The notes beneath the pieces are model-generated. The model searched no databases. It saw nothing but the letters and a program-made list of their open reading frames with translations, and was not told the DNA's origin. A DNA stretch of 32,780 nucleotides, taken from the UHGV virus genome UHGV-0305798, one strand, 5' to 3'. This DNA comes from a virus. Made by a program: the position numbers and the translations under genes. The first letter of the stretch is position 1; every line of letters starts with the position of its first letter. This document shows, one piece after another, positions 1,525 through 26,389 of this stretch.

Positions 1525-2161
1525 CCGCTTTTACATGATGTGCTTGCGTGAAACTGTGGGTAATAACGCTTCATTCCATTGCCATAACGGCAATGGTTAC
1601 AGTTCTGATATCGATCGCGCTCATGTTTACACGCTGGAAGAAGCCCAAAAAGCCTGGAATTGTGGGCGAGATATCGATCAGCCTGTTTGTGCCGATAGTG
1701 TGGATGCAATGGCTGTGTGGCACGTTGATTGCCAGTACATCCCTACAGAAAGCCTGATTGAGTCAGATTGCACTGCGTATGTGGCCTACAAAAAAGGCAG
1801 CTGGAACGGCAACGATGTTTACTGGCTTCAACACGGTGGATTGCCAACAGATGACTTCAGTAAAGCGACCATCTTTAGCGTCGCCAACAAAAACGAACCA
1901 GGAATAGTTTGGTTGCCATTTTCCATTGCTGATGCAGCAAAGCGCCGGACGTTCAATATCAATAACTTTAACCGCAGAACAATGGTTCAGGGCGCAGGTT
2001 TGGTCATGCCTGACTGGTTGAAAGAGCAGAACAGAAGAAAGAAGTCGCGAAGCGGGAAGGTGCGTTGGAATTGTCCGCATTGCGGAAAAATAACCTGGCA
2101 GTACAGCCCATATGATTTTGAAGGCTGTAGTGATTACAACTGTGAAGGATGGCGAGAATGA
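1517..2161 (+). CDS. hypothetical protein with C-terminal Cys cluster (zinc-ribbon-like)
   Basis: GTG start at 1517 preceded by AAGGAGG at 6 nt; overlaps upstream stop by 8 nt. C-terminal CPHCG...CSDYNCEG suggests a zinc ribbon. Confidence 0.55.
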   Translation: MNNRFYMMCLRETVGNNASFHCHNGNGYSSDIDRAHVYTLEEAQKAWNCGRDIDQPVCADSVDAMAVWHVDCQYIPTESLIESDCTAYVAYKKGSWNGNDVYWLQHGGLPTDDFSKATIFSVANKNEPGIVWLPFSIADAAKRRTFNINNFNRRTMVQGAGLVMPDWLKEQNRRKKSRSGKVRWNCPHCGKITWQYSPYDFEGCSDYNCEGWRE

Positions 2162-2880
2162 CAATTGACTATCAGGCACTGCGTGAAAAGGCAGAGAAAG
2201 CAACGTGTGGTGTGTGGTCGCTCGAATATGGAGAGGGACGATTTGATGGTGATGATGCACTAATTCATCGCGAGGTTGCTGGATATATTCCTATTTGCAG
2301 AATTGAAGGAGCGCATCCAGAAAGCCGTTTCTATGAAGATTTCCAAATGGAACAGCAGGCCAATGCTGAATTCATCGCCGCAGCCAATCCAGCTACCGTG
2401 CTGGCACAACTGGATGAAAGGGAAAGAAACCAGCAATACATCAAACGCCGTGACCAGGAGAACGAGGATATTGCGCTTACGGTTGGGAAGCTGCGCGTTG
2501 AGCTTGAAGCAGCAAAATCAAAACTCAACGAGCAGCGCGAGTATTACGAAGGTGTTATCTCGGATGGAAGTAAGCGCATAGCAGAACTGGAAGCGCGGGA
2601 AATAAAACCAGCCAAAGGTGAAGTTCTGGTCGTTGTATCTGGTTTTACTGGTTGCGGAAAAAGCGCCATTGCCGGGGAAATAGAAATCGCGATGAAGGCT
2701 ATTGGTGTACCGGTTAAGTGGACTAATGGCGATGCAGAAAAGCGCATGACTGGCGCTGACTGGCTGACTGCGATTGAGATGTACAAACCAACTGTGCGCA
2801 TCGTGGAAGTTAATGTGCCACGCGCCGCTGGAATTCGCACCAAAGGAGATGCAGGAGAGCAAAGCGATGAAAAACCGTAA
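2158..2880 (+). CDS. Ea22-like coiled-coil protein with C-terminal Walker-A-like motif
   Basis: ATG at 2158 overlaps the upstream stop (ATGA). N-terminal half reads as a charged coiled coil resembling lambdoid Ea22/Ead-family proteins (from recall). C-terminal GFTGCGKS matches the GxxxxGK[ST] P-loop pattern. Alternative start at 2149. Confidence 0.5.
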   Translation: MTIDYQALREKAEKATCGVWSLEYGEGRFDGDDALIHREVAGYIPICRIEGAHPESRFYEDFQMEQQANAEFIAAANPATVLAQLDERERNQQYIKRRDQENEDIALTVGKLRVELEAAKSKLNEQREYYEGVISDGSKRIAELEAREIKPAKGEVLVVVSGFTGCGKSAIAGEIEIAMKAIGVPVKWTNGDAEKRMTGADWLTAIEMYKPTVRIVEVNVPRAAGIRTKGDAGEQSDEKP

Positions 2881-3055
2881 AGCAAAGATTCTGTTAGTTC
2901 GTAGAAACGCTCCTGGCGTCTGGCAGTGGGTGAGACTCAGCAACCGACGGATGGGGTTGATGAAATATTACGGGATGATGGATTGTGGTTTTTGCAAAAA
3001 GCCCAGCGCGGCGCAAAACCGCTGGAAAAACCACTTGCGCACTAAAGGAGAGTGA
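2867..3055 (+). CDS. small hypothetical protein (62 aa)
   Basis: ATG at 2867 inside ORF 2774..3055, overlapping the stop of the upstream gene; basic, Cys-containing. Weak support. Confidence 0.35.
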   Translation: MKNRKAKILLVRRNAPGVWQWVRLSNRRMGLMKYYGMMDCGFCKKPSAAQNRWKNHLRTKGE

Positions 3056-4333: not shown

Positions 4334-4368
4334 ACCGGTAAAGGTGTTCGCGATAAAGGTAAATATTG

Positions 4369-4707
4369 ATGGCTAAATCAGCAGCAGAGCGCAAAGCCGC
4401 TCAGAGAGCCAGACAAGCTGCATCTGGTGTGCGTAAGCTGGAAATTGTGCTTGATGCTCAGGAAATTGAAATGCTGGAGCGTAACTGTGCCACGCGTCGC
4501 CCCGGGCGTGCGCCTTACGAATTTGGTGAGTATATAGCGTTACTGATCCGCCAGGATGATGCACGTGTGCGCGGGCGTATAAAATCGATCAGCAGAAAAC
4601 GTTGCGGTAAGTGCGGCGAGAGAGTTCCAGTTAATTCATGCCCGTGTAATGGTGACTCGCAATGCTGGGTGACTAAAGGCTGGCATGAAACGAAATTAAT
4701 AGTGTGA
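4369..4707 (+). CDS. hypothetical basic protein with C-terminal zinc-ribbon (candidate regulator)
   Basis: ATG at 4369 (4366 is TTG). Basic N-terminus, C-terminal CGKCG...CPCNGDSQC. It is the last gene before the terminator and the terminase operon. Confidence 0.5.
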   Translation: MAKSAAERKAAQRARQAASGVRKLEIVLDAQEIEMLERNCATRRPGRAPYEFGEYIALLIRQDDARVRGRIKSISRKRCGKCGERVPVNSCPCNGDSQCWVTKGWHETKLIV

Positions 4708-4715
4708 CATGTCAC
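4704..4715. repeat. 12-bp perfect palindrome GTGACATGTCAC (copy 1)
   Basis: Read directly; overlaps the stop codon of the 4369..4707 gene. Identical copy at 6969..6980. Confidence 0.6.
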
Positions 4716-4756
4716 GAGTAGATTATGCATGATGAATTTGATGGATTTTGAATACT

Positions 4757-4782
4757 GCCGCCAACTATGGCGGCTTTATTTT
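4757..4782 (+). terminator. rho-independent terminator upstream of terminase operon
   Basis: GCCGCCA-acta-TGGCGGC hairpin followed by TTTATTTT. Confidence 0.5.
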
Positions 4783-4793
4783 GCATGGTATTA

Positions 4794-4808
4794 TTACCAC
4801 AACGGTAA
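4794..4808. promoter_or_regulatory. palindromic site TTACC-ACAAC-GGTAA (copy A)
   Basis: Read directly; a half-degenerate second copy (TTACC-ACGGT-GGTTA) follows immediately. Lies 18 bp upstream of the terminase small subunit ATG. Confidence 0.4.
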
Positions 4809-4825
4809 CAATTACCACGGTGGTT

Positions 4826-5422
4826 ATGATGCCTGCTGAACCTAAAACCTATAAACGCAAATCAACGCAATTTAAGCCACTAACAGCAATGCAGGAGGCT
4901 TATTGCCAGTCATACATCAAAACGCCTGAAAACCAGACTCAGGCAGCGATTAACGCAGGATTCTCCCCAAATACAGCGGCAGTTAAAGCCAGTGTCATGA
5001 TGCGCGATGAACGCATTCAAAAACGGATTGCCGAGTTGATGGAGGAGCGCAACAAACGAATGCGCGTCAGTGCTGATTACGTTCTCATGCGCCTGGTGGA
5101 GATCGACCAGATGGACGTGATCGACATCCTCAACGACGATGGGAGCCTTAAACCAATCCGCGAGTGGCCGAAAATCTGGCGCACTACGCTTAGCGGCTTT
5201 GATCTGTCATCGACCATCATGAACATGAACGAGGATTCGATAGAGACAATCCTCAAAAAAATTAAATGGCCTGACAAGGTGAAGAACCTTGAGCTGATTG
5301 GTAAGCATGTTGATGTCAACGCGTTCAAAGAACGCCTGGATGTTAATGTGAATGTGACAATTGCTGATCGCATAGCGGCAGCCAGGAAGAGACTGAAAGA
5401 ACGTCAGGATGGCAATCAGTGA
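4826..5422 (+). CDS. terminase small subunit
   Basis: Contains the TerS-type helix-turn-helix block (LTAMQEAYCQSY...QTQAAINAGFSPNTAAVKAS...IQKRIAELMEER). Start placed at ATG 4826 after GGTGG; the ORF-track start 4748 would add an implausible hydrophobic extension. Overlaps the large subunit start. Confidence 0.8.
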   Translation: MMPAEPKTYKRKSTQFKPLTAMQEAYCQSYIKTPENQTQAAINAGFSPNTAAVKASVMMRDERIQKRIAELMEERNKRMRVSADYVLMRLVEIDQMDVIDILNDDGSLKPIREWPKIWRTTLSGFDLSSTIMNMNEDSIETILKKIKWPDKVKNLELIGKHVDVNAFKERLDVNVNVTIADRIAAARKRLKERQDGNQ

Positions 5423-6894
5423 CAGATACAGCGTTATCTCCTGAAGAGCAGTTGATCGAGGATATTGCAGGGTTCACTCACGATCCGCTTGGCTATGCCC
5501 TCTATGCGTTCCCGTGGGGGGAAGAAGGGACTGAACTGGCACATGCTACCGGCCCACGTCAGTGGCAGGCTGATGCGTTCCGAGAGATACGTGATCACCT
5601 GCAGAATCCAGAGACGCGATATCAGCCGCTTATGCTGGCACGTGCTTCTGGTCACGGTATTGGTAAATCCGCATTCATCTCAATGCTGATCAACTGGGGC
5701 ATGTCCACTTGCGAGGATTGTAAGGTCGTGGTGACCGCCAACACCGACAACCAGCTACGAACGAAGACCTGGCCGGAAATTATCAAGTGGTCAAACCTTG
5801 CTATCACGAAAGACTGGTTTACCTGTACCGCTACCGCGATGTACAGCAATGACCCTGGGCACGACAAGCGGTGGCGAGCTGACGCAATCCCCTGGTCTGA
5901 GCACAACACTGAGGCGTTCGCCGGACTACACAACGAGCGCAAACGCATCATCGTGGTATTCGATGAAGCGTCGAACATTGCGGATCTGGTGTGGGAAGTT
6001 GCTGAGGGTGCGCTTACGGACGAAGACACTGAGATTATCTGGGTAGCGTTCGGAAACCCTACACGTAACACCGGGCGTTTCCGCGAATGTTTCCGCAAAT
6101 ATAAACACCGCTGGAAAACTGCGCAGATTGACAGCCGGACGGTGGAAGGCACTAACAAACAGCAGTTGCAGAAATGGGTTGATGACTACGGGGAAGATAG
6201 CGACTTCGTTAAAATCCGTGTGCGCGGCATATTCCCTGATGCATCTGAATTGCAGTTTATCCCTACCGGTCTTACTGATGAGGCAATGAAACGGGTGGTA
6301 ACCGCTGCGCAGGTTGCACATGCTCCGGTGATAATCGGCGTTGACCCGGCATACTCAGGCGTTGATGACGCGGTGATATACCTGCGGCAGGGGCTGCACA
6401 GTAAGGTGCTATGGACTGGTAACAAGACCACCGACGATCTGATTATGGCGAAGCGTATCGCTGACTTTGAAGACCAGTATCAGGCTGACGCGGTGTTCAT
6501 CGACTTCGGTTACGGAACCGGTTTGAAGTCAATCGGTGATGGCTGGGGACGTACATGGCAACTTGTTCCGTTCGGCGGTGCGTCCACTGACCCGCAGATG
6601 CTTAACAAGCGTGGGGAGATGTTCAACTCATGTAAGACATGGCTGAGGCTGGGCGGCATGCTGGATGACCAGGAAACTGCAGACGACCTGTCAGCGGCAG
6701 AGTACAAAGTTCGTGTGGACGGTAAAATCGTTATCGAACCGAAGGAAGATATCAAGGAGCGGCTTGGGCGTTCGCCGGGTAAAGGCGATGCGCTACTGCT
6801 GACGTTTGCTTTCCCTGTGTCGAAGCGTCTGCGAATTCCTGGGCAGCAGAACCAGCAAGGCAAGGCCATCACAGATTATGACCCGTATGCTTAA
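5419..6894 (+). CDS. terminase large subunit
   Basis: 491 aa with Walker-A-like ATPase motif (ARASGHGIGKS) and C-terminal nuclease-type acidic motifs (VVFDEAS, GVDPAYSG). GTG start at 5419 preceded by AGGATGG. Confidence 0.9.
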   Translation: MTDTALSPEEQLIEDIAGFTHDPLGYALYAFPWGEEGTELAHATGPRQWQADAFREIRDHLQNPETRYQPLMLARASGHGIGKSAFISMLINWGMSTCEDCKVVVTANTDNQLRTKTWPEIIKWSNLAITKDWFTCTATAMYSNDPGHDKRWRADAIPWSEHNTEAFAGLHNERKRIIVVFDEASNIADLVWEVAEGALTDEDTEIIWVAFGNPTRNTGRFRECFRKYKHRWKTAQIDSRTVEGTNKQQLQKWVDDYGEDSDFVKIRVRGIFPDASELQFIPTGLTDEAMKRVVTAAQVAHAPVIIGVDPAYSGVDDAVIYLRQGLHSKVLWTGNKTTDDLIMAKRIADFEDQYQADAVFIDFGYGTGLKSIGDGWGRTWQLVPFGGASTDPQMLNKRGEMFNSCKTWLRLGGMLDDQETADDLSAAEYKVRVDGKIVIEPKEDIKERLGRSPGKGDALLLTFAFPVSKRLRIPGQQNQQGKAITDYDPYA

Positions 6895-6944
6895 TCCGCT
6901 GGTGGGGATAATGTCGTTGATATCCTCTGATGAGGATAAAACAA

Positions 6945-6970
6945 AGCCAGCTCATCGGCTGGCTGTTTGT
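6945..6970. terminator. terminator hairpin after terminase large subunit
   Basis: AGCCAGC-tcatc-GGCTGGCT followed by GTTTGT; a second hairpin (TATCCTC-tgat-GAGGATA) lies just upstream. Sits between convergent genes. Confidence 0.45.
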
Positions 6971-6980
6971 GACATGTCAC
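6969..6980. repeat. 12-bp perfect palindrome GTGACATGTCAC (copy 2)
   Basis: Read directly; identical to 4704..4715, with the same flanking T and G. Confidence 0.6.
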
Positions 6981-6984
6981 GGTG

Positions 6985-7407
6985 TTAGAAGGTTATTTTA
7001 TCGAATGCGGCGTTGATTGCCTTGGCGTCCTGCTCAGCACCAACCACATCAAGTAAAGATCTTTTACTAAGCACTTCAGCCAGGCATTGTAACTTCATGT
7101 TGTATAAGTTTTCGCGCATGTAATCATCATCACTTTTTTCTTTGGCGTATACAGCGCGAGAAATATCAAACACATTGCCTTTTTCCATTTCAGTTTTCTG
7201 CGCTGAAATCCAGTCATGGCAAGTAACTCCTATTCCATGGTCATCGCTAAGCGTTAACCCGGCAAGTCGCTCACCTGGAATTGCTTCACAAAGCATTTCA
7301 TTTCCTGCAAAAACACCATAAAAAATTGAGTCATCACCCTGAACAATGCGTACATATTTGCACGGCCATTCATTTAGATATTTAGCTAGCATGTCGGCTG
7401 TTTTCAT
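6985..7407 (-). CDS. hypothetical protein (140 aa), reverse-strand insert between terminase and portal
   Basis: ATG at 7407 preceded by AAGGTGAG; clean ORF; looks AT-richer than flanking genes by eye; no family recognised. Confidence 0.6.
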   Translation of the reverse strand: MKTADMLAKYLNEWPCKYVRIVQGDDSIFYGVFAGNEMLCEAIPGERLAGLTLSDDHGIGVTCHDWISAQKTEMEKGNVFDISRAVYAKEKSDDDYMRENLYNMKLQCLAEVLSKRSLLDVVGAEQDAKAINAAFDKITF

Positions 7408-7424
7408 GATCTCACCTTAAAAAA

Positions 7425-7448
7425 ATGCCCGGCGAACCGGGCTGTACT
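7425..7448 (-). terminator. rho-independent terminator (minus strand) between tRNA and the 140-aa gene
   Basis: Minus-strand reading GCCCGG-ttcg-CCGGGC followed by ATTTTTTT, immediately upstream of the gene's RBS. Confidence 0.4.
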
Positions 7449-7572
7449 GGTTTACAGCATGAAGTCATCGCAATGGCGTCCTGCTGTAAAAAGGGCGGTG
7501 ATAGTTCTTCAAGGGAAACCATCACCGCCAAGCCCCTGGAACTTCTGGCATCACGGTCCTTAGGCGTGATTC

Positions 7573-7649
7573 TGGCGTGGCATGCAGGATTCGAACCTGC
7601 GACCAACCGCTTAGAAGGCGGTTGCTCTGTCCGACTGAGCTAATGCCAC
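7573..7649 (-). tRNA. tRNA-Arg (anticodon UCU)
   Basis: Minus-strand sequence GTGGCATTAGCTCAGTCGGACAGAGCAACCGCCTTCTAAGCGGTTGGTCGCAGGTTCGAATCCTGCATGCCACGCCA folds as a cloverleaf: 7-bp acceptor stem, D arm, anticodon stem ACCGC/GCGGT with loop CTTCTAA, T loop TTCGAAT, encoded CCA end. Confidence 0.85.
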
Positions 7650-7971
7650 AACGCTGAGAGCACTTAGCCTGTTAAGGCGCCACACTTTGTCGCGGCTCCA
7701 TAAATGCTCTCATCGTTGTACCCTCGTCTCTTCCGAGGCGTCACACCGAATCGCCGGGATGGTGAATCCCCGTGCGCGGAATAAAACCGCTCGACTTGCA
7801 CATTCCGGCTACCTGGTTCGTTTGCCCGAGCAAGGGAGGGTGCCCCTTAAACGTATCCAGACCGCTATCGGCGCATGTGCCATACGCCGTACTGCTCAAA
7901 ATAAAAGCTCACTCCACCTGTTTAATTTAACGACAAGCCAGTCAGGTTAGTAACCAGAATGAGCTCTTTAG

Positions 7972-7986
7972 TTACCTGAAAGGTAA
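7972..7986. promoter_or_regulatory. palindromic site TTACC-TGAAA-GGTAA (copy B)
   Basis: Read directly; about 90 bp upstream of the small ORF and portal operon; 17-mer TTACCTGAAAGGTAATA is identical to copy E. Confidence 0.4.
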
Positions 7987-8076
7987 TAATTCACGCGTTA
8001 AATGTCAACCTTCTACGATAAATAAATCATATGTGGTTAAATTGGTAATAATTTAATTGCGTACGGAGTCATTGAT

Positions 8077-8283
8077 ATGTGCATGGGTAGCTCACCATCA
8101 GTGCCTGCAACACCAGAAGTTCAGGCAGCACCACAGGAGCAGGATGCCGCCGTTGTTGATGCCCGCGACGAAGAAACACGTCGCCGTCGCGCTGCTGCTG
8201 GTCGTAGTTCTACGCTGCTTACCGGTTCTCAGGGCGACACATCAACCGCTAATACCAGCGGTAAAACGCTGCTTGGTCAGTAA
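8077..8283 (+). CDS. small hypothetical protein (68 aa)
   Basis: ATG at 8077 preceded by GGAGTCATTGA, the same 11-nt initiation region that precedes the portal ATG. Low-complexity product; the overlapping frame 8057..8296 is less convincing. Confidence 0.4.
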   Translation: MCMGSSPSVPATPEVQAAPQEQDAAVVDARDEETRRRRAAAGRSSTLLTGSQGDTSTANTSGKTLLGQ

Positions 8284-8297
8284 CCGGAGTCATTGAA

Positions 8298-9977
8298 ATG
8301 GCGGAAACAACTAAAGAGCGATTGAACAAACAGTTCGCACAACTTGAAAGCGAGCGTCAGTCGTTCGAGCCGCACTGGCGCGAGTTGAGTGATTACATCA
8401 ACCCGCGTGGTTCCCGCTTTCTGACTTCTGAGGTCAACCGTAACGATCGACGCAATACACGCATTATTGATTCGACCGGGACTATGGCGGCGCGCACTCT
8501 CGCCAGCGGCATGATGTCAGGCATCACAAGCCCTGCGCGTCCGTGGTTTCGCCTGGCTACGCCAGATCCTGAAATGATGGATTATGGTCCTGTTAAGTTG
8601 TGGCTCGAGGCGGTGCAGAACCGCATGAACGATATGTTCAATAAGTCGAATCTCTACCAGTCTCTTCCGCAGTTATACGGAAGCCTCGGCACATACAGCA
8701 CTGGTGCAATGGCGGTGCTGGAGGATGACGAGGACATCATTCGCACAATGCCATTCCCGATAGGCAGTTACTACCTGGCTAACTCACCTCGTGGCAGTGT
8801 GGACACCTGTTTTCGCAAGTTCTCTATGACTGTTCGTCAGCTTGTTCAGGAGTTCGGGCTAAATAACGTCAGCGAATCCGTAAAAAGCATGTGGGAAAGC
8901 GGCACCTACGAGAAGTGGATTGACGTGATGCATTCGGTTTACCCGAACATTGACCGCGATACATCGAAGCTGGATAGCAAGAACAAGCCATTCAAATCGG
9001 TTTATTACGAGGTTGGTGGCGATAACGACAAGTTGTTGCGTGAGTCCGGATTTGATGAGTTTCCAATTATGGCTCCGCGCTGGGAAGTTAATGGCGAAGA
9101 TGTTTATGGATCATCATGCCCGGGTATGCTGGCGCTTGGACCTGTTAAGGCATTGCAGCTTCTCCAGAAGCGCAAGTCGCAGTTGATTGATAAAGCCACC
9201 AATCCGCCGATGGTTGCTCCGACTTCCCTCAAGAATCAGCGCGCCTCCCTTCTTCCTGGCGACATCACGTATATCGATCAGATTACTGGTCAGGATGGTT
9301 TCAGGCCTGCTTATCTGGTTAACCCCAGTACAGCAGATCTGGTAGCAGACATTCAGGACACTCGTCAAATCATTAACAGCGCCTACTTTGTCGATCTGTT
9401 CATGATGTTGCAGAACATCAATACCCGCTCGATGCCTGTTGAAGCGGTGATCGAAATGAAAGAAGAAAAACTTCTGATGTTGGGGCCGGTTCTGGAGCGT
9501 CTGAACGACGAATGTCTTAACCCTCTCATTGACCGCGCTTTCTCGATGATGGTGCGTAAAAACATGCTGCCGCCACCGCCTGACGCGATGGAAGGTATGC
9601 CCCTGAAGGTCGAATACATTTCCGTCATGGCTCAGGCGCAGAAGTCTATCGGCCTGTCCAGTCTGGCGTCCACGGTTAACTTCATTGGTCAACTTGCGCA
9701 AGCGAAACCAGAAGCTCTCGACAAACTCAACGTTGATCAGGCGATCGATGCATTCGCTGATATGTCCGGAGTGTCTCCAACCGTCATTGTTCCGCAGGAA
9801 CAGGTTGAGCAGGCTCGCCAGCAACGGGCACAGCAACAACAGCAGCAACAAATGATGGCGATGGGGATGGCGGCGGCACAGGGTGCCAAGACGCTAAGCG
9901 AAGCTAAAACTTCGGATCCGAGTGTTTTGTCAGCTATGGCGAATGCAGTTAGTGGTCAGGGTGGGCAATCACAATGA
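8298..9977 (+). CDS. portal (head-to-tail connector) protein, T7 gp8-like
   Basis: 559 aa; position after terminase; Gln/Ala/Met-rich C-terminal tail (QQQQQQMMAMGMAAAQGA) resembles the T7 gp8 C-terminus (recall-based). Confidence 0.8.
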   Translation: MAETTKERLNKQFAQLESERQSFEPHWRELSDYINPRGSRFLTSEVNRNDRRNTRIIDSTGTMAARTLASGMMSGITSPARPWFRLATPDPEMMDYGPVKLWLEAVQNRMNDMFNKSNLYQSLPQLYGSLGTYSTGAMAVLEDDEDIIRTMPFPIGSYYLANSPRGSVDTCFRKFSMTVRQLVQEFGLNNVSESVKSMWESGTYEKWIDVMHSVYPNIDRDTSKLDSKNKPFKSVYYEVGGDNDKLLRESGFDEFPIMAPRWEVNGEDVYGSSCPGMLALGPVKALQLLQKRKSQLIDKATNPPMVAPTSLKNQRASLLPGDITYIDQITGQDGFRPAYLVNPSTADLVADIQDTRQIINSAYFVDLFMMLQNINTRSMPVEAVIEMKEEKLLMLGPVLERLNDECLNPLIDRAFSMMVRKNMLPPPPDAMEGMPLKVEYISVMAQAQKSIGLSSLASTVNFIGQLAQAKPEALDKLNVDQAIDAFADMSGVSPTVIVPQEQVEQARQQRAQQQQQQQMMAMGMAAAQGAKTLSEAKTSDPSVLSAMANAVSGQGGQSQ

Positions 9978-16401: not shown

Positions 16402-16976
16402 TGTGCGATCCGGTTATTGCTGGTGGCGCAATGCTCGCCATGAGTGGCATTCAGGCATACACCCAGTACCAACAGGGAAAGTATGCCTCGAAGGTTGCAG
16501 AAGCGAACGCAGATATAGCCACAGCTCAGGCAAATGATGCAATAAACAGGGGTAACGCTGAAGCTGAGCAACGACGCAGAGAGACCCGACAGCGGCTTGG
16601 TACACAGGCGGCGACAATGGGGGCTACCGGCGCTGATTTATCTACAGGTAACGCGCTGGATATATTTGGCGACACTGCCCAGTTTGGCGCTCTTGATTCG
16701 CTGACGACGGTGAATAACGCGCAACGCGAGGCTTACGGTTATCAGGTTCAGGCTGCCAACTATAAAGCAGAAGCCAGTTCAGCCCGTAAACAGGGGAATG
16801 TGGGAGCAGCAACAACATTGCTCACTGCGCCTCTGAAGGCATACGGTGCGTACCAGATGTTTGGTGGGACGTGGAGTCCGTTCTCTAAAGGAAGTACATC
16901 TAGTGGTGGGACGCCAATGTTATCTAACTCAGGTTTTATGAATTCTGACTCCCGATTCAAAATAGGAGGTTACTGA
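16401..16976 (+). CDS. internal virion protein B-like (T7 gp14-like)
   Basis: 191 aa starting MC..., Ala/Gln-rich N-terminal region like T7 gp14; positioned before two giant core-protein genes. Confidence 0.55.
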   Translation: MCDPVIAGGAMLAMSGIQAYTQYQQGKYASKVAEANADIATAQANDAINRGNAEAEQRRRETRQRLGTQAATMGATGADLSTGNALDIFGDTAQFGALDSLTTVNNAQREAYGYQVQAANYKAEASSARKQGNVGAATTLLTAPLKAYGAYQMFGGTWSPFSKGSTSSGGTPMLSNSGFMNSDSRFKIGGY

Positions 16977-19723
16977 TGCCTGTTGTTCCTACTACATCCG
17001 GACGCCAGGTGCAAAGTCGTGGTGTGCAAACCGGTGGTTTTCAGACCTTCGATGTTCCTCAAGCAGGTCAGGTGCTGGCGAATGTCGCAGATCAGTATGC
17101 GGTGGCATATGGTGAAGCTAGGCAGAAAGCGAATGTTGCTATGGCCCAGGAGGCGTTACTGCAATTTAACCAATTTGCAGATGACCAGATTAACAACCCT
17201 GAAAATGGGCTGATTTCTAAACAGGGTAAAAACGCTCTTGGTCAGAGTGACGCTGTTATGAAAAATATGCAGGAAAGGGCTCAGGCATTATTAGGCTCAA
17301 TTCCTGAAAGTGAGGAAAGGAATAAATTATCCTTTCAACTCCAGCAGTCTATGCAGTCTTATTACAATCAGGCACGTCGATATGAAGTTGGGCAGTTTCA
17401 GCAATTCCAAGATCAAACGTATTTGTCAGGAAATGCATTGGCTGTCACTCAGTCTGCGGGGCTATATAGCGATAACCAAGCATTTGTCGATTTAGCCAAG
17501 CAGCGATTTGAATCTATTGATCAATACGCTGATGCGCATGGGCTTCCTGATGAGTGGCGTGTTCAGCAGAAAACTCAGCTCAAGGAACAAATGGGGCAGC
17601 AAGCATGGATAGGAAATATCGCTCAAAAATACAACGAGTTTCTTCAGGTTAATGGAGAGCCAGGGGATCTTGATGGTGTGAGTCGTGCAATATCACATGG
17701 TAATTCATTGGATGCTCGTGGTTTACGTAATAATAACCCTGGTAATATTGAAGCGAGCAAATCTAACCCGTGGGAAGGTCAGATCGGTAGTGATGGACGT
17801 TTTGCAACGTTTGCTACCCCTGAGCATGGAATCCGCGCGTTGGGTAAAAATATGTTGTCTTACCAGCGTCAAGGCTATGACACCGTTAGCGAGATTGTTA
17901 ATCGCTATGCTCCGGCTAGTGATGGTAATAATACTGATGCTTATATTAGGGCATTGTGTAGTGAGCTTGGTGTTGGGGAGAATGATCAGCTTGATATCTC
18001 TAACCCAAAGACACTAGCTGCTTTATGTGCTGGGATTATTAAACACGAAAATGGCAGTATGCCTTATAGCACCGAACAGCTTGAAACTGGTATCTCGGCA
18101 GCCCTTGGTCTAACTAACCTTGATTCACCTAAGCGTTATACGGGCAATGCGGCATTTGACGCTATGAGCCCTCAAATGCAAATACAGGCATTGAGGCAGG
18201 CTAATGAGCTGAGAAATCAGTACCGCCAGCAGTATGCGGACCAGCTTAGCACCGTAGTTAAAGATGCATATTCAGCCCTTGATGAAGGATTGAAACCTGA
18301 GAAGTTACCTTCTGAGGACGATTTTATCCGGGCCAATGGTCCGCGCATTGGCGCTATGAAGTGGAAGGATATGCAGGCGCAGATACAATATGGAGGTGTC
18401 ATTGGTGCCGCTAAAGACCTCACTCCAGAAGGACGACAAGACATTCTTGAACGTTTACGTCCACAGGATCCAAATGCTCCTGGATTTGCAGCTAACCAGC
18501 AACGCTGGGAGAAAATGCAGGCCAAATTTAAAGAGATGGATAGGGAGTGGGAGATTCAGCAGGGAAGAAACAGGTTCGTGTCTTCAATGCAAAATAACTT
18601 CCCGCTGGACCCTAACGACAAAAACAATCAGGCAGCGGTAGACCGTTATTTCGCGCAGGATATCGCGCCTTCGTTTTCCATATCTGATCCGCAGAGCATC
18701 AATACACTGGTCACCGTCACAACTAAAAGCGGCATGATACCAACTCAGGTTAAAACAATGCTTAACAGTGGAGCAACATCAAGAGATCCTGCGCTGGTTG
18801 TCCCGATGGCAAAATTCTACGGTCAGTTATTCGATAATAATCCGGCGGCAGCGGCAACACTTGATAAAAGTACGATGGCATTTTACGGCAAGGTTTACGA
18901 TTATTCCCGCGCTGGCGTGCCGGAGGATAAGGCTGTTGATATGGCTTACAGCCAGGTGTTCCAACAGGATGACCGAATGAAACAGATGCTTTCCACTGCC
19001 ATGCGAGACAAAAAATATGTCGCGGCGAGGGCAACTGCTGCACAAAATAACGCCAGCAGTCTGACTTCCTTTGGTTCGTGGTCTCCGGATATTACCGATC
19101 CAGGAAAATCAAATGCGGCCTATCAGCGAGATTACCAGACAATTTACGATGCTAACTTTGTACAGACAGGTGGCGATGCAGAACAGGCTGAGAAAATGAC
19201 CAATGCCATGATCAGAACCACCTGGGGAGTTTCTACAGTTAATGGCAAAGCAGAGGTTATGAAGTATGCACCTGAGGCATTGTACGGAGTAAATAATGGT
19301 GCTGGTAACTGGATACAGGGGCAGTGGGAGCAGGAAAAACGCGAGCTTAAATCAAAATCCTTTGGCGGTCCTCGCAGTGATACGGACTTAATACTTGTTT
19401 CTGATGGCCTTACGGCAAGGGATAGGAGTTATGCTGTTATGGTTTTACAGCCTGACGCAAACGGAGCGATAGAACCGAGAAATTATATTGGAGAAAATGG
19501 TCTCCCTGTTCGTTTCAAGCCGGATCAGCTGACATCTCCAATGTACAGGCAAACCATTCAGTTCCAGCAACAGCGTGTTGATGAGGCTAGAGTGCGGAGA
19601 GAAGGCAATCCGCTGCCGCAGTTCAGCAATAAAGATGGATATACTCCTCCAGATCTGACCAAACCATTCGGTTATGGTTCAGCCAATTACCTTCCGAGCA
19701 ATATATACGCAGGGGGCAAATAA
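16976..19723 (+). CDS. internal core protein C-like (gp15 position), 915 aa
   Basis: Large ORF in the gp15 slot with tight overlaps to neighbours; contains a distinctive block (RGLRNNNPGNIEASKSNPWEGQ...VNRYAP) that may be a catalytic or cell-wall-interacting domain. Confidence 0.6.
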   Translation: MPVVPTTSGRQVQSRGVQTGGFQTFDVPQAGQVLANVADQYAVAYGEARQKANVAMAQEALLQFNQFADDQINNPENGLISKQGKNALGQSDAVMKNMQERAQALLGSIPESEERNKLSFQLQQSMQSYYNQARRYEVGQFQQFQDQTYLSGNALAVTQSAGLYSDNQAFVDLAKQRFESIDQYADAHGLPDEWRVQQKTQLKEQMGQQAWIGNIAQKYNEFLQVNGEPGDLDGVSRAISHGNSLDARGLRNNNPGNIEASKSNPWEGQIGSDGRFATFATPEHGIRALGKNMLSYQRQGYDTVSEIVNRYAPASDGNNTDAYIRALCSELGVGENDQLDISNPKTLAALCAGIIKHENGSMPYSTEQLETGISAALGLTNLDSPKRYTGNAAFDAMSPQMQIQALRQANELRNQYRQQYADQLSTVVKDAYSALDEGLKPEKLPSEDDFIRANGPRIGAMKWKDMQAQIQYGGVIGAAKDLTPEGRQDILERLRPQDPNAPGFAANQQRWEKMQAKFKEMDREWEIQQGRNRFVSSMQNNFPLDPNDKNNQAAVDRYFAQDIAPSFSISDPQSINTLVTVTTKSGMIPTQVKTMLNSGATSRDPALVVPMAKFYGQLFDNNPAAAATLDKSTMAFYGKVYDYSRAGVPEDKAVDMAYSQVFQQDDRMKQMLSTAMRDKKYVAARATAAQNNASSLTSFGSWSPDITDPGKSNAAYQRDYQTIYDANFVQTGGDAEQAEKMTNAMIRTTWGVSTVNGKAEVMKYAPEALYGVNNGAGNWIQGQWEQEKRELKSKSFGGPRSDTDLILVSDGLTARDRSYAVMVLQPDANGAIEPRNYIGENGLPVRFKPDQLTSPMYRQTIQFQQQRVDEARVRREGNPLPQFSNKDGYTPPDLTKPFGYGSANYLPSNIYAGGK

Positions 19724-22700
19724 TGCCGATATATGAACAGGATCCTAAAGAGTTGCTTGGCGAGGATATTCAGCAAATAGCAGCACCTGATGACAGTAAT
19801 TTCTATATGGAAACACCTTCTTTGCTTTCTGCTGTGAACCCATTTACCAGTGAGCAACGCGTTCAAAGGTCTAGACAAGCAGCATTTCGTATAGATAACA
19901 CGCTGGGTAGCTTTATTGCCAGTGCTCCTTTCAGTCAGTTTGACAGGGTTGAAGGATATAACCCATTTGATAACGATGCAGCAGATATTAAAGGCTATGA
20001 AGATTTTGCAGATTCGTTTATCAACTCCGGTTCGCATGAAGAAACAATGGCAATTAAACATCGAATCGATAAGCAAAGAACAGATAGAGAATATCTATCT
20101 GAAATGGGTGGTGCTGGTACTATTTCAAGCTTAGCAATGGGAATGATAGACCCGGTTAATGTGGCTGCAATGTTCATCCCTGTAGGGGCGGTAGCGCGTG
20201 GAGGAAGTATTGCTGAGACGGCAGGGCGTTTTGCCCTGGCGAATGCTGCTGGTGGGGGAGTATCAGAAGCCGCATTACAGGCCACTCAGGAAGCTCGCTC
20301 ACCGATGGAGAGCGTATCGAACGTTGTTGTTGATGCTCTCGTTGGTGGGATCCTTGGTGCTGGTGCACAGCTACTTGCTGGACCTAGCGCGCGCGAGGCA
20401 GTGGTTAACTCAGTAGGTAATCATTTGCGAGGTATGGATTCTCCTCAAAGCATTGGTGCAGCTCAGGTTTTCAATACCACACTCGATCAGGAACAGCTCG
20501 CTGGACTTGGACTTGCTAACAAAACGTTGAGTGTCACTCCTGCTGGCCGCTTGGCGCAATCACCATCTCTTGTCTCCCGTCAGATTAACCAGCAGCTTGC
20601 CGAAAATAACTATTTCTTCGCCAAAAATGATGAGGGGTTGGCTACGTTTACGGCAGTCGAGACTAAGATTAAGCAATACGACGCCATGCTTTATAAGCAG
20701 ATGGAAGCTACTCGTGATGCTTACCAGCAGTACAGCAAATCTGTCAGCGCCCGCGGCGTGAAGAGGATGAACTTTATTGATTTCAATGAAGCTGTTGGCA
20801 TGGCTATGCGCCGTGGTGATCAGAGTGATATTCCTGAGGTTTCACAAGCAGCCGCCAGAATCCGCCCCATTTTTGAGACCACAAAAGCCCGTATGCAGGA
20901 ATTGGGGATCCTTCCTGAGGATATCGATGTCGTGACGGCGAAGAGTTATCTTCCCCGCATTTATAAGTTCGATAAGATACTTTCCGACCGCACTGAATTC
21001 AGAGGGCGAATTGCCAACTGGATACAAGGGATTAGTGCCAAAGGTGCTGACAAAGCAGGTCAGCGAATTGAAAAGATAAATTCATTGCTAAAAACTGCAG
21101 AGGAATCAGCACCGCGCGCTGATGCTCTCGCTAGTGAAATCGCTGAAGCGGAGAAATGGTCTGGTAAAAAAATTCTACTCATGGAAGAACTGGATAAACG
21201 AAATAAGCTTATATCTCAGGAGACTGACACACAGGCGCGTCTTACAAGAATAGAAAAAGAGTTGGCCGAGACTTCATCAGAAAAACTTCAGGCAAGAATG
21301 ATGAAAGAAAGCTCTGACCTTAAAACACGCCTTGATGATATAGCGCAGGCAAAGAGTGAGCTTCCTGTCTATCAGCGCCATATGGAGTTGCTGGATAATC
21401 CACGGAAATATCGTTCTGAGCTTCGCCGACTGCAAAAACGGGCAAATTCAACCACAAGGCTGAATGCAAGCCGCGAGCGAGCACTGAAGCAGATGGAGCC
21501 TCTATCCCGAGAGGAAGCAGAGGACGCTGCTGACGAGATCGTGAATAAAATAATAGGCGCACCTTCCGGGCTTGTACCAGCCGATATTATCCCAGAGAGA
21601 CTCGTTGGTCGGGCTGGTTTCACTAAAAGCAGAACGCTGCTTATTCCTGATGAGCGTATAGAAGATTTTCTTGAATCAGATGTTAACTACATCATGGAAA
21701 GTTATCTCCGGCAGGTGGCACCAGAAATTGAGCTGACTGCGCAGTTTGGCCGTAAAGATATGGGGGAGCAAATCCGTCAGGTTAGTGAGGAATATACCCG
21801 GCTAATAAAAGAGGCTAAAACACCTAAACGACGTGCAGTTCTTGAGAAGCAACGGGAGGCTGATATTAGGGATATTACGGCTATGCGTGATCGACTGCTT
21901 GGTACTTACGGTGCACCTCAAGATCCACGCAGTTTCTTTGTTCGTGCCGGGCGAGTTGCTAGGAATATTAACTTCCTCCGTTTGCTTGGTGGAATGACTG
22001 TCTCCGCTGCAACTGATCTGATGCGACCGATGATGCAGCATGGCCTGAGAAAATCTCTCGGACCAATGGTAAGCATGCTTAAAAATATGGACTCAGTAAA
22101 AATTGCAACCAGGGATTTGCGAGAAATGGCAGTTGGGCTTGATTATGTCCTGTCTACGCGTACAAAGGCTATAGCGGATCTTACTGACCCCTATAGCCGG
22201 AGAAGCGCCGCTGAGCGAGGTCTGAACTGGATGACGCAGAAATTCGGTAACTGGACGCTGATGAATCAGTGGAACAGCGCACTTAAATCATGGTCTGGGA
22301 TGATAGTGCAGTCGAGGATACTTGACGCGGCTCGCCAAGTTTCTGCTGGTGGCACGCTCTCCAAAAGTGAAATGCGGAAGATGGCACAGGTCGGCATCAA
22401 TGAAGATGTTCTGCGCCGAATCGGGGAGCAATTCGGGAAGCACGGAGAGGATATGGACGGGCTGTTAACCGGGCATAGTCATCTGTGGGATGACCGTTTC
22501 GCTAGAGAGATTTTCCAGTCTGCAGTGCTGAAAGATGTAGACTCAGTGATTGTAACGCCTGGCGTAGGTGATACACCGCTGTTTTTTAGTAAAGAAGGCT
22601 GGAAGATGATCACGCAGTTCAAAACGTTTATCTTCGCACAGCATAACAGGGTGCTGGTATCTGGTATCCAGCAGGGCGATGCTGCATTCTATCTTGGTGC

Positions 22701-23112
22701 GCTTGGCACGATTGCGCTTGGCTCAATGGTCTATATGATGAAACAGAAGTTAAGCGGTCGCGATATCGACTACAGCTGGAATAACCTTGTGAAAGAGGGG
22801 ATCGACCGGGGCGGAATGCTTGGCTGGCTCTCTGAGCCGCTGAATACCGTTGAGAACATAAGCGGCGGTAGGTTTGGTCTTGGCGCGATGTTTGGTGCGC
22901 CTCCGGTATCAAGGTTTCAGAGTCGTAATGCTATTGGTGCTTTACTTGGTCCTACCTTTGATCTTGGCGGTGATGCCGCGACGGTTGCAAATGGTGTACT
23001 TAACGGAGAATTTGACAGCCAGCAAACCCACGCTGTCCGTAAAATGCTACCTTTTCAGAATCTGTGGGCGATATCACCATTACTAAATAAAGTTGAAGAG
23101 CAGATGAAATAG
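19723..23112 (+). CDS. internal core/ejection protein D-like (gp16 position), 1129 aa
   Basis: Largest ORF in the module, in the gp16 slot; long charged coiled-coil centre and Gly/Ala-rich hydrophobic segments. No transglycosylase motif recognised. Confidence 0.6.
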   Translation: MPIYEQDPKELLGEDIQQIAAPDDSNFYMETPSLLSAVNPFTSEQRVQRSRQAAFRIDNTLGSFIASAPFSQFDRVEGYNPFDNDAADIKGYEDFADSFINSGSHEETMAIKHRIDKQRTDREYLSEMGGAGTISSLAMGMIDPVNVAAMFIPVGAVARGGSIAETAGRFALANAAGGGVSEAALQATQEARSPMESVSNVVVDALVGGILGAGAQLLAGPSAREAVVNSVGNHLRGMDSPQSIGAAQVFNTTLDQEQLAGLGLANKTLSVTPAGRLAQSPSLVSRQINQQLAENNYFFAKNDEGLATFTAVETKIKQYDAMLYKQMEATRDAYQQYSKSVSARGVKRMNFIDFNEAVGMAMRRGDQSDIPEVSQAAARIRPIFETTKARMQELGILPEDIDVVTAKSYLPRIYKFDKILSDRTEFRGRIANWIQGISAKGADKAGQRIEKINSLLKTAEESAPRADALASEIAEAEKWSGKKILLMEELDKRNKLISQETDTQARLTRIEKELAETSSEKLQARMMKESSDLKTRLDDIAQAKSELPVYQRHMELLDNPRKYRSELRRLQKRANSTTRLNASRERALKQMEPLSREEAEDAADEIVNKIIGAPSGLVPADIIPERLVGRAGFTKSRTLLIPDERIEDFLESDVNYIMESYLRQVAPEIELTAQFGRKDMGEQIRQVSEEYTRLIKEAKTPKRRAVLEKQREADIRDITAMRDRLLGTYGAPQDPRSFFVRAGRVARNINFLRLLGGMTVSAATDLMRPMMQHGLRKSLGPMVSMLKNMDSVKIATRDLREMAVGLDYVLSTRTKAIADLTDPYSRRSAAERGLNWMTQKFGNWTLMNQWNSALKSWSGMIVQSRILDAARQVSAGGTLSKSEMRKMAQVGINEDVLRRIGEQFGKHGEDMDGLLTGHSHLWDDRFAREIFQSAVLKDVDSVIVTPGVGDTPLFFSKEGWKMITQFKTFIFAQHNRVLVSGIQQGDAAFYLGALGTIALGSMVYMMKQKLSGRDIDYSWNNLVKEGIDRGGMLGWLSEPLNTVENISGGRFGLGAMFGAPPVSRFQSRNAIGALLGPTFDLGGDAATVANGVLNGEFDSQQTHAVRKMLPFQNLWAISPLLNKVEEQMK

Positions 23113-24254: not shown

Positions 24255-24887
24255 TTAATGCAGTTTATCTTTGCTTATAACCAGTAGTCTGTGGGTATGC
24301 ACATCTTTATCACTGCCCCAACAGAAATCAGCCCACTGGCTATAGAAATCATCCCATGATGTCATGAAGCTAAGAGGTCTATCTTCTTCAGAGCCATCTG
24401 AAACGTATACATTATATCCTGGGGTGTTTATAGCCCAAGAAATCATTCTTTCCCAGAATCTTCTCCCATCGATTGTTTGTTGCTCATCAGATACAACGAT
24501 CGCATATTGCTCTAGGAAGAACTGAAAAAAAATCTGAGGCAAACCATGAACAGCACGGTCATGAATAACATTAGGCGTACGCCATACCATGATCTGCGTA
24601 CATGTTCTTTTGGCTTCGACGATATCTTCCCGAAAGATTAACTTAACCGCATACACCGTTTCTGGAGTATCGCTGGTAGTAATCATTCTGTAATGATCGC
24701 CATTACAAGATTTTACAAGGCGATAACCATAAGGTGTTGTGAATCCCGGAAGAACGAAATCAACCACACCTTTCGCTAAGTAGCTTTCGGTGTGACTAGT
24801 GTTCTTCTCAGACATGTTCAGTTTTCTATCGAAATCTGCTTCTGGGATAATGTATGGCATCGCTTTTCTTGTTGTATTTGTTCTCAT
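24255..24887 (-). CDS. hypothetical protein (210 aa), reverse-strand accessory gene
   Basis: ATG at 24887 preceded by GGGAGG at 5 nt; own terminator downstream and palindromic site upstream; AT-rich by eye; no family recognised. Confidence 0.6.
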   Translation of the reverse strand: MRTNTTRKAMPYIIPEADFDRKLNMSEKNTSHTESYLAKGVVDFVLPGFTTPYGYRLVKSCNGDHYRMITTSDTPETVYAVKLIFREDIVEAKRTCTQIMVWRTPNVIHDRAVHGLPQIFFQFFLEQYAIVVSDEQQTIDGRRFWERMISWAINTPGYNVYVSDGSEEDRPLSFMTSWDDFYSQWADFCWGSDKDVHTHRLLVISKDKLH

Positions 24888-24946: not shown

Positions 24947-24961
24947 TTACCCTTGAGGTAA
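24947..24961. promoter_or_regulatory. palindromic site TTACC-CTTGA-GGTAA (copy C)
   Basis: Read directly; about 60 bp upstream of the 210-aa gene start. Confidence 0.4.
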
Positions 24962-25726: not shown

Positions 25727-25880
25727 GGCGATCACCTTTGTAGTTAGGTTAATCACCACCGCTGAGACCAATCAGATGGTGGTGAACTGTGCAGAGTTGG
25801 TCTTACCGGCTACAAAGGAACCCGGCGCACCTTTCGGTGCCCCCACACAGCCCACCATAGAATAGGTGCGCTTTACACAT

Positions 25881-25993: not shown

Positions 25994-26008
25994 TTACCGC
26001 AAAGGTAA
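25994..26008. promoter_or_regulatory. palindromic site TTACC-GCAAA-GGTAA (copy D)
   Basis: Read directly; extended palindrome ATTTACC-GCAAA-GGTAAAT; lies between the antirepressor and the small paralogous gene. Confidence 0.4.
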
Positions 26009-26374: not shown

Positions 26375-26389
26375 TTACCTGAAAGGTAA
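26375..26389. promoter_or_regulatory. palindromic site TTACC-TGAAA-GGTAA (copy E)
   Basis: Read directly; about 105 bp upstream of the tailspike ATG and about 40 bp beyond the LexA box; 17-mer identical to copy B. Confidence 0.4.

Follow-up and report, generated by a model that had tools for sequence, protein, structure and literature searches.

A tRNA-Arg(UCU) gene upstream of an exchangeable cassette slot, a candidate counter-defence locus between terminase and portal of a phiV10/epsilon15-type phage

What role can a tRNA gene and a small protein gene have between the terminase and portal genes of a temperate phage, on the strand opposite to theirs? The question is raised by UHGV virus genome UHGV-0305798, a stretch of 32,780 nucleotides (hereafter the window), where a tRNA-Arg(UCU) gene (7573..7649) and an open reading frame (ORF) for a protein of 140 amino acids (7407-6985) lie on the minus strand, between the large terminase subunit gene (5419-6894) and a gp3-like ORF of 68 amino acids (8077-8283) preceding the portal gene, all three on the plus strand. 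An earlier note on this DNA had rightly described both as opposed to the morphogenesis genes. Taken alone, a phage tRNA-Arg known in relatives next to a hypothetical protein is ordinary; the value of this locus is in its context. New here, and all missed by the earlier note, are a predicted promoter bearing an operator-type motif, a cassette slot, and known sponge families as co-occupants of the slot. The explanation that we favour, with middling confidence when all its parts are taken together, is that of a single leftward transcription unit of a temperate Uetakevirus, in which the tRNA would supply AGA decoding and the 140-aa protein would be a counter-defence (immune-evasion) factor active in lytic growth.

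The stretch belongs to a temperate Uetakevirus of the phiV10/epsilon15 type. Over 6900-8300 it shares 99.9% identity with Escherichia phage vB_EcoP_PAS61 (hereafter PAS61), and relatives of this region are found in phiV10, O157 typing phages 9 and 10, ZX5, TL-2011b and epsilon15, in Salmonella phages SPN1S, SPN9TCW and SPC32H, and in Klebsiella and Enterobacter phages. Some match to it was present in 1,102 of 5,426 complete E. coli genomes, and a match over at least 80% of the region in 113. We assembled 139 sequence-unique related loci with the conserved leader motif, counted as sequences and not as independent lineages, and recorded the cargo that each carried at the place of the 140-aa gene. 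The PF13876 family was found in 55 of the 139 loci. The second most common occupant was phrog_4846, to which the 140-aa protein belongs (28 loci), followed by phrog_4780, a protein with transmembrane and coiled-coil segments (11 loci), PF11195 (9 loci) and PF24729 (1 locus, among a dozen rarer small proteins). Twenty loci had no ORF of at least 40 amino acids, some of them containing only an 8-codon mini-ORF, MKDEFDGF; as these empty slots show, the slot is dispensable.

PF13876 corresponds to Acb4, a sponge acting against the cyclic oligonucleotide-based antiphage signalling system (CBASS), and the 1,331 homologs listed in Table S3 of bioRxiv 10.1101/2024.12.30.630793 include the slot proteins of epsilon15 and phiV10. 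PF11195 is Tad2, and PF13876 again Acb4, in a second study (bioRxiv 10.1101/2025.07.12.664507), and PF24729 is the Acb2/Tad1 hairpin domain by its Pfam name. By these family assignments, three unrelated families of immune-signal sponges occur in the slot, at the position of the 140-aa gene, and it is because they share it that we propose a counter-defence role for the 140-aa protein. The locus resembles the anti-defence loci and sponges (Acb2, Acb4, Tad1, Tad2, Sequestin, Lockin) of bioRxiv 10.1101/2025.07.12.664507 in that alternative small proteins, including at least three sponge families, succeed one another at one locus, and in the modularity of these proteins, whose domains exist alone or in different fusions. 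It differs in that phrog_4846 has no homology to any sponge, its counter-defence role being suggested by position alone. In phiV10/epsilon15-type phages, a sharply bounded slot is filled in nature with Acb4, Tad2-like or Acb2/Tad1-like genes, and candidates for new counter-defence proteins can be sought among its other occupants: phrog_4846 in the first place, next phrog_27507 and phrog_3163, along with several unclassified small proteins.

In an alignment of eight divergent phages, the ends of the slot were fixed whatever the cargo, and phrog_4846 homologs of Enterobacter and Klebsiella prophages occupy the same slot. The 5' boundary is a hairpin, hereafter named H4, followed by seven U residues (U7) and by AAGGTGAGAt(c/t)ATG (hairpin-U7-AAGGTGAGAtcATG). 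In the window, H4 (GCCCGGUUCGCCGGGC, 7442-7427) is followed by an A and by U7 (7425-7419), which directly abuts the Shine-Dalgarno (SD) sequence AAGGTGA (7418-7412) of the cassette gene; SD, ATG and ORF together extend over 6985..7418 on the minus strand. The 3' boundary consists of TAA, C(a/g)CC, the perfect 12-bp palindrome GTGACATGTCAC, 4 nt, a GCCnGC...GCnGGC hairpin and a U-tract. In the window the palindrome (6969..6980) comes 4 nt (CACC) after the stop codon, and the hairpin AGCCAGCCGAUGAGCUGGCU (6964-6945) then UUGUUUUAUC form a conserved terminator (6935..6964, minus strand), detected by the terminator scan and annotated as such in the phiV10 record. This terminator ends the leftward unit 51 nt past the stop codon of the large terminase gene, and may also act on the plus strand. 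The palindrome was present behind every cargo type in the 8 phages, one of which, a Klebsiella phage, has it with 2 mismatches, and in tandem cassettes (L003, L036) the 3' end is fused to U7-AAGGTGAGATTATG. Between such fixed boundaries, the slot cargo is exchangeable. The closest comparison is with epsilon15 gp50 and phiV10 gp03, both Acb4 (PF13876), which share with the 140-aa gene the genus, the strand, the position between large terminase and gp3/portal, the leader hairpins, the hairpin-U7-SD 5' junction and the TAA-CACC-GTGACATGTCAC-terminator 3' junction. They differ from it in that the cargo of the window is an unrelated protein and that epsilon15 also lacks the tRNA.

The 140-aa gene had been taken for an unrecognised orphan, which it is not, being a full-length member of phrog_4846 (E 7.7e-87, residues 1-140 on profile positions 1-140), a family with no function attached. 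Homologs form 111 clusters at 90% identity, all from Enterobacterales (prophages), and only 31 relatives, none of them informative, were found with HMMER among 1.84 billion representative proteins (50% identity clusters). Lack of conservation, which the earlier note had named as a reason to doubt the ORF, was not observed: the protein is conserved over its full length, with 41-89% amino acid identity and no frameshifts, in E. coli, Salmonella, Citrobacter, Klebsiella and Enterobacter, so that it is not a chance ORF. The suggestion of an accessory gene was borne out, its presence varying among relatives and its GC content being 41%, vs 52% in the flanks. An AlphaFold2 monomer model (mean predicted local distance difference test score 82.8) has an alpha/beta N-terminal domain (residues 1-75), a disordered linker (82-89) and, best conserved of the three, a C-terminal helical hairpin (93-137). 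The family is modular: the C-terminal hairpin also exists free, as abundant 61-aa proteins, or fused to a different N-terminal domain, and some members carry an additional C-terminal domain, phrog_16206.

Searches with the 140-aa protein in Pfam (E ≤ 0.1), NCBIfam and PADLOC gave no match, nor did a profile search of PDB sequences, and Foldseek comparison of the model with BFVD and PDB returned nothing at E ≤ 0.001. A profile of the C-terminal domain retrieved the free 61-aa proteins and no fusion to a known domain. No trace of the family was found in the literature and supplements searched for its peptide strings and accessions, and phrog_4846 is absent from the searchable supplementary tables of bioRxiv 10.1101/2025.07.12.664507. 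Three specific identities were tried and rejected. Acb4 (PF13876) gave no Pfam hit at E ≤ 0.1, and BLASTP against phiV10 gp03 no alignment; Tad2 (PF11195) and Acb2/Tad1 (PF24729) gave no profile match; and for the C-terminal hairpin, kinship with Sequestin (PF21825) received a probability of 1.4% by hhalign against 23 Sequestin sequences (Table S1), with no Pfam hit.

The place of the gene between large terminase subunit and portal, and the confinement of its family to this phage group, might indicate instead that the position is functional and that the protein serves packaging or morphogenesis, as a terminase or portal accessory or as a regulator. We consider this very improbable, because the slot is empty in 20 of the 139 loci and filled with unrelated genes in most others, because epsilon15 and phiV10 are viable without the protein, and because the gene is on the opposite strand under a separate promoter. 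Nor does a C-terminal domain found free as a 61-aa protein, with N-terminal domains swapped among relatives, suit a part in the packaging machinery.

The promoter of the leftward unit came to light only through alignment across phages. It is predicted at 7972..8008 on the minus strand, with a -35 box TTGACA (8008-8003), a 17-nt spacer and a -10 box TACCTT (7985-7980), the latter lying inside an operator-type motif, TTACCTTTCAGGTAA (7986-7972). TTGACA-N17-TACCTT is invariant across six divergent phages aligned from gp3 to the tRNA, and of 139 distinct loci, 134 have promoter plus operator ahead of the leader, 133 of them with the 17-nt spacer; the combined pattern occurs a single time in the window. 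A built-in consensus promoter scan of 6700-8400 found no promoter, missing this one because its -10 matches the consensus at only 3 of 6 positions, and inspection by eye of the H2 block (see below) and of the sequence directly upstream of the tRNA revealed no convincing sigma-70 promoter. In the epsilon15 record, the annotation gives the motif TTACC-N5-GGTAA as a repressor site, both at the corresponding position and at other promoters. In the favoured explanation, a sigma-70 promoter with a consensus -35 would fire leftward from near 7973. Its -10 being buried in the operator-type motif, the unit should be repressed in the lysogen and switched on by infection or induction. Such a pattern would suit counter-defence better than lysogenic conversion.

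It is on this point that the most serious rival for the protein can be judged. Lambdoid phages carry morons, extra genes with their own promoter and terminator inserted between conserved genes, and the 140-aa gene might be a classical moron serving the lysogen (through superinfection exclusion, abortive infection or host fitness) and expressed from the prophage. Like lambdoid morons, it is variably present between conserved late genes, has a deviant GC content (41%) and a terminator of its own downstream, and it is inserted in reverse orientation. Some of the alternative cargo, such as phrog_4780 or the lipoprotein-like gp3 of SPN9TCW, resembles exclusion or abortive-infection factors, and a prophage of this kind is reported to promote the fitness of E. 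coli CFT073, by way of a different gene (PMC3573123). Unlike in a moron, however, a terminator-like hairpin occupies the place where the gene's own promoter would be, no promoter fitting between H4 and the ribosome-binding site; the promoter is some 570 nt upstream, operator-bearing and shared with the tRNA. With an operator-type motif over the -10 of the only promoter found, little expression is expected in the lysogen. Even the membrane-protein cargo follows this rule: cassettes encoding phrog_4780-type proteins of 200-296 aa (in loci L041, L055, L062, L071, L073, L095, L103, L131 and others) carry a promoter of their own just after H4, with the operator motif in its spacer (for instance ATGACC-N5-TTACCTTAAAGG-TATAAT), which suggests that slot cargo is generally under this operator. 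Finally, the commonest co-occupants (Acb4, Tad2-like, Acb2/Tad1-like) serve the infecting phage rather than the lysogen. A moron serving the lysogen is therefore an unlikely identity for the gene.

Between promoter and tRNA extends a 5' leader of about 322 nt (7650..7971, minus strand), transcribed from the predicted start near 7973 and containing conserved blocks. The blocks GGCACATGCGCC, GGTAGCCGGAATGTGCAAG and TCACCATC..GGTGTGAC.CCTCGGAAGAGACGAGG are kept across genera, are common to relatives bearing the tRNA and to those bearing the scaffold RNAs described below, and are deleted in epsilon15. The predicted fold of the leader has an energy of -118.8 kcal/mol, and Rfam gave no match for 7650-7971. 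The leader may hold another structured RNA.

The transcript would then run from this leader of some 320 nt through the tRNA and four hairpins, H0, H1, H2 and H4, to the cassette gene. H0 (7550..7570, ATCACGCC-UAAGG-ACCGUGAU) is a trailer hairpin directly 3' of the tRNA; it is kept in nearly all loci, with either tRNA or scaffold RNA, and is possibly a 3'-processing or stability element. H1 (hairpin 7529-7494 then CUUUUUAC, 7486..7529) was detected by the terminator scan, with 14 pairs and -23.2 kcal/mol, and probably ends most tRNA transcripts; between phage groups, one of its pairs changes from G-C to A-U in a compensatory manner. H2 (7451..7490, UUUACAGCAGGACGCCAUUGCGAUGACUUCAUGCUGUAAA) is a near-invariant 40-nt hairpin which RNAalifold pairs. 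Its block was invariant in 8, then in 18 divergent leaders, with one pair being G-C in 9 sequences vs A-U in 8; as a speculation, H2 is a candidate cis element for the control of read-through. H4 (7419..7442), also from the terminator scan, has an energy of -12.7 kcal/mol, and in Salmonella-type phages two of its stem pairs are compensated, GG/CC becoming AC/GU. All four hairpins are on the minus strand. A further hairpin of about 33 nt, H3 (CACGGAAGGCA...TTGCTTCC), lies between H2 and H4 in most relatives and is absent from the window and PAS61 (7427-7451); since these two do without it, H3 is dispensable.

H1, H4 and the hairpin of the 3' boundary all fit the pattern predicted for intrinsic terminators, a GC-rich hairpin followed by a U-tract. 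The terminator scan gave 3 terminator-like sites vs 1.8 expected in shuffled sequences, and this count alone is weak; conservation of the hairpins and their compensatory changes give better support. The earlier note had placed one terminator between tRNA and gene, with the ribosome-binding site right after it. H4 does abut that site, and the number needs amending, since there are two terminator-like hairpins rather than one. Read-through, which had also been suggested, is strengthened: as there is no room for a promoter after H4, and as the second genes of tandem cassettes, joined by the same hairpin-U7-SD junction, are intact behind the same hairpin, some read-through must occur. We suppose that the fraction of transcripts passing H1 and H4, by leakiness or by some antitermination, would reach the ribosome-binding site and lead to expression of the cassette gene. 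No Q-like or N-like antiterminator was identified, the adjacent regulator (4366-4707) being phrog_536, a 'transcriptional regulator', and antitermination here is put forward as a hypothesis. Shiga toxin (Stx) lambdoid phages provide a partial parallel, in which the tRNA genes ileZ-argN-argO and then accessory genes lie downstream of PR'/tR' and depend on Q antitermination. In both arrangements an accessory gene follows a phage gene of the tRNA-Arg(UCU) type, and intrinsic terminators between promoter and cargo have to be read through; the two differ in phage type and in strand logic.

The same hairpins could be held to mean that the ORF is silent, a hitch-hiker behind two efficient terminators: terminator-like structures of -23 and -13 kcal/mol with U-tracts stand upstream of it, and it has no promoter of its own. 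However, a silent gene would hardly have stayed free of frameshifts and conserved over its full length at 41-89% identity in five genera, nor kept its SD and ATG junction, and the second-position tandem genes remain intact behind the same hairpin. We give silent cargo very little credit.

Several points weigh against the counter-defence explanation itself. The role is drawn from position only, and neither in sequence nor in fold does the 140-aa protein resemble Acb4, Tad2, Acb2/Tad1, Sequestin or any PDB or BFVD entry. The slot is not purely a sponge locus either, since part of its cargo (membrane, lipoprotein-like and coiled-coil proteins) is more suggestive of exclusion or abortive infection. 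The census counts loci, which are not independent lineages, and repressor binding at the operator is taken from the annotation of a record. Lastly, sponges that act stoichiometrically need high expression, with which two terminator-like hairpins upstream fit poorly unless there is antitermination. That terminator-like hairpins should separate a strong promoter from genes presumably requiring high expression raises the question of read-through or antitermination in this phage group. In the explanation that we retain, the 140-aa protein would nevertheless most likely act during lytic growth against host immunity.

We now turn to the tRNA, the other half of the unit. It is 77 nt long (7573..7649, minus strand), and ARAGORN found it as the only tRNA of the 32.8-kb window (tRNA-Arg, anticodon tct), with CCA encoded. 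The complete tRNA-Arg(UCU) that had been claimed is thus supported by ARAGORN, and also by the Rfam tRNA model RF00005 (73.3 bits vs a gathering score of 29, E 1e-15). The acceptor stem pairs throughout, from G1-C72 to U7-A66. Identity elements for arginyl-tRNA synthetase (ArgRS) are A20, C35, U36 and a purine at 73, in addition to the 3' CCA; the tRNA has ArgRS-type elements in its D-loop (AGUCGGACA, A after GG), in U34-C35-U36, in G73 and in the encoded CCA (our own numbering). In comparison with what we take to be the sequence of E. coli argU, 63 of 77 positions are identical, including the anticodon loop CUUCUAA and the T-arm, and the differences lie in the acceptor stem, the anticodon stem and the variable loop. 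By cloverleaf, anticodon, identity elements and CCA, the molecule reads as a bacterial elongator tRNA-Arg(UCU).

This tRNA is near-invariant and kept in 103 of 137 unique related loci, being missing from the other 34. It is not new, because the RefSeq annotation of E. coli prophages and that of several phages already include it, and because the ZX5 paper mentions one tRNA (PMC9782041). In the PAS61 and phiV10 records it is unannotated; in the latter, the coding sequence PhiV10p04 (record 2672-2923, plus strand) overlaps it on the opposite strand, and is therefore probably spurious. The absence of the tRNA in epsilon15 results from a deletion running from upstream of the tRNA into the H1 loop. 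A remnant of an attachment site was tried as an identity for the tRNA and rejected, since no part of the tRNA is missing and integration in this type of phage takes place at guaA (PMC9782041).

In the mechanism proposed, the tRNA would most likely supplement the scarce host AGA decoder for AGA-rich tail, injection, tailspike and accessory genes. AGA and AGG occur respectively 9.0 and 4.9 times per 1000 codons in our gene set for the window, 6.8 and 3.8 times in PAS61 as annotated, 4.4 and 4.1 times in epsilon15, which has no tRNA, and 2.7 and 2.7 times in an E. coli sample of nine genes. AGA is thus 2.5- to 3.4-fold above the nine-gene host sample, and about twice as frequent as in the tRNA-less epsilon15. 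The AGA codons cluster in tail, injection and tailspike genes and in the gene at 24255-24887, in keeping with the usual explanation by codon supply, AGA-rich proteins being encoded at 16976-23112, 24255-24887 and 26494-28956. The gene at 24255-24887 appears as the most obvious client of the phage tRNA. This gene (minus strand, 210 aa, phrog_1349, function unassigned), in which 10 of 14 arginine codons are AGA, adjoins an Ant-type anti-repressor gene (25034-25771, minus strand). The idea of the earlier note, that a phage-borne AGA/AGG decoder may support translation, holds insofar as AGA reaches 9.0 in the window vs 2.7 in the host sample and 4.4 in epsilon15, and is weakened insofar as long ORFs near the slot had similar AGA use in loci with and without the tRNA (no difference, p = 0.2). 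Two other facts count on the negative side, namely that the tRNA is missing from about a quarter of relatives and that the host codon sample consists of nine genes only. Supply of AGA decoding by the tRNA is thus weakly supported.

Phage tRNAs that rescue from anticodon-nuclease attack exist, and colicin D cuts tRNA-Arg. Rather than feeding translation, the tRNA could thus itself be a counter-defence device, replacing or outnumbering the host tRNA-Arg when a defence or toxin directed at tRNAs cleaves or depletes it. Its co-transcription with a counter-defence cassette would agree with this, as would the codon usage near the slot, which does not follow the presence of the tRNA, and the replacement of the tRNA by tRNA-like RNAs that are not tRNAs in 31 of 133 loci, hard to square with pure decoding. 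Yet the anticodon loop CUUCUAA, which we take to be identical to that of argU, has no escape substitutions, and the AGA enrichment over the host sample and epsilon15 speaks for decoding; we know of no defence nuclease specific for tRNA-Arg(UCU). On balance, a protective rather than a decoding role for the tRNA seems improbable.

The RNAs that take the place of the tRNA form a subject of their own. Between the same flanks, 31 of 133 unique loci have, instead of the tRNA, an RNA with tRNA-like ends, which we call a scaffold RNA. Such elements are at the tRNA position in L004, L042, L094, L112, L118, L134, L142, L143, L154, L162 and L167, further in L168, L171, L176, L188, L210 and L212, and scaffold elements are also present in L216-L315. 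Their 5' end, GTGGTGA-AU-GCGC-AGGCUGAU-GCGC, has the geometry of an acceptor strand and a D-arm, and their 3' end is GCCGG-AGAUCAGCA-CCGGC-CACCAC, a few having the canonical GGUUCGAAUCC T-loop. Compensatory variants are found in the T-stem. In place of the anticodon arm there is an insert of 20-160 nt, different in almost every locus. The exact 25-nt 5' motif was found in at least 120 IMG/VR contigs, of several phage sizes and types, and among the matches listed there were at least 83 distinct scaffold elements, whose inserts fall into about 50 clusters. As a rule the element has a terminator of its own downstream, and it often neighbours true tRNA genes or precedes holin-like genes.

One insert type resembles a known RNA. 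That of L110 (4600-4646) and L118 mimics helix 11 of 16S rRNA (Rfam SSU_rRNA_bacteria 237-283, 31.5 bits, E 9e-6); by blastn it matches E. coli 16S rRNA 243-282, and TA/AT swaps at the base of the helix keep the pairing. When inserts were compared with the E. coli rrn operon, only this L118/L110 type matched, L134 and L142 keeping just the helix base. The L315 insert contains a nested tRNA-like unit, and no CRISPR-repeat-like sequence was seen by eye in the inserts. ARAGORN and Rfam 15 did not recognise the scaffold RNAs, PGAP left them unannotated in the E. coli genomes sampled, and the searchable literature yielded no description of them. They may represent a novel kind of non-coding RNA in phages, of perhaps greater novelty than the tRNA and ORF themselves. 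That they act as RNA decoys is speculative, and unrelated to the window's own tRNA.

Taking these RNAs and the cassette together, a wider and more tentative hypothesis would be that of a two-part counter-defence module. In it, phrog_4846, or its 61-aa C-terminal hairpin, would found a family of immune-evasion proteins distinct from the sponges known so far, and the upstream part would be an RNA-level cassette. The tRNA would be one allele of that cassette and the scaffold RNAs would be others, members of a widespread family that could serve as decoys for host factors binding or targeting RNA, or titrate them. We regard this module as doubtful.

The sequence signals of the unit recur elsewhere in the genome. 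TTACC-N5-GGTAA has 7 sites in the window, vs 0.58 expected (4794-4808, 4812-4826, 7972-7986, 24947-24961, 25994-26008, 26375-26389 and 26607-26621). These operator-type sites precede the small terminase gene (4748-5422, PF03592), gp3 and the portal gene (8298-9977, plus strand, PF12236, E 2e-187), the Ant-like gene and the tailspike gene, which suggests direct control of several late and accessory promoters by the repressor. The palindrome GTGACATGTCAC has two exact copies in the window (4704-4715 and 6969-6980) vs 0.11 expected, and three copies each in epsilon15 (L091; 2142, 19517, 39612) and PAS61 (L092; 12343, 14608, 32674). All copies are found where an operon ends, overlapping or following the stop codon of its final gene and closely preceding an intrinsic terminator, and the palindrome looks like a putative protein-binding site linked to termination.

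A last observation concerns the conserved 8-codon mini-ORFs. In the window, the palindrome and the terminator that precede the small terminase gene enclose one of them, MHDEFDGF (4725-4751, plus strand), whose stop codon is 5 nt upstream of the hairpin. MKDEFDGF or MKYEFDAF occurs in otherwise empty slots (L017, L109, L162), and MKDEFDRF after Acb4 in epsilon15 (L087, ~2157-2183, minus strand). Such a mini-ORF could encode a leader peptide that modulates termination, or be the remnant of a deleted cassette gene.

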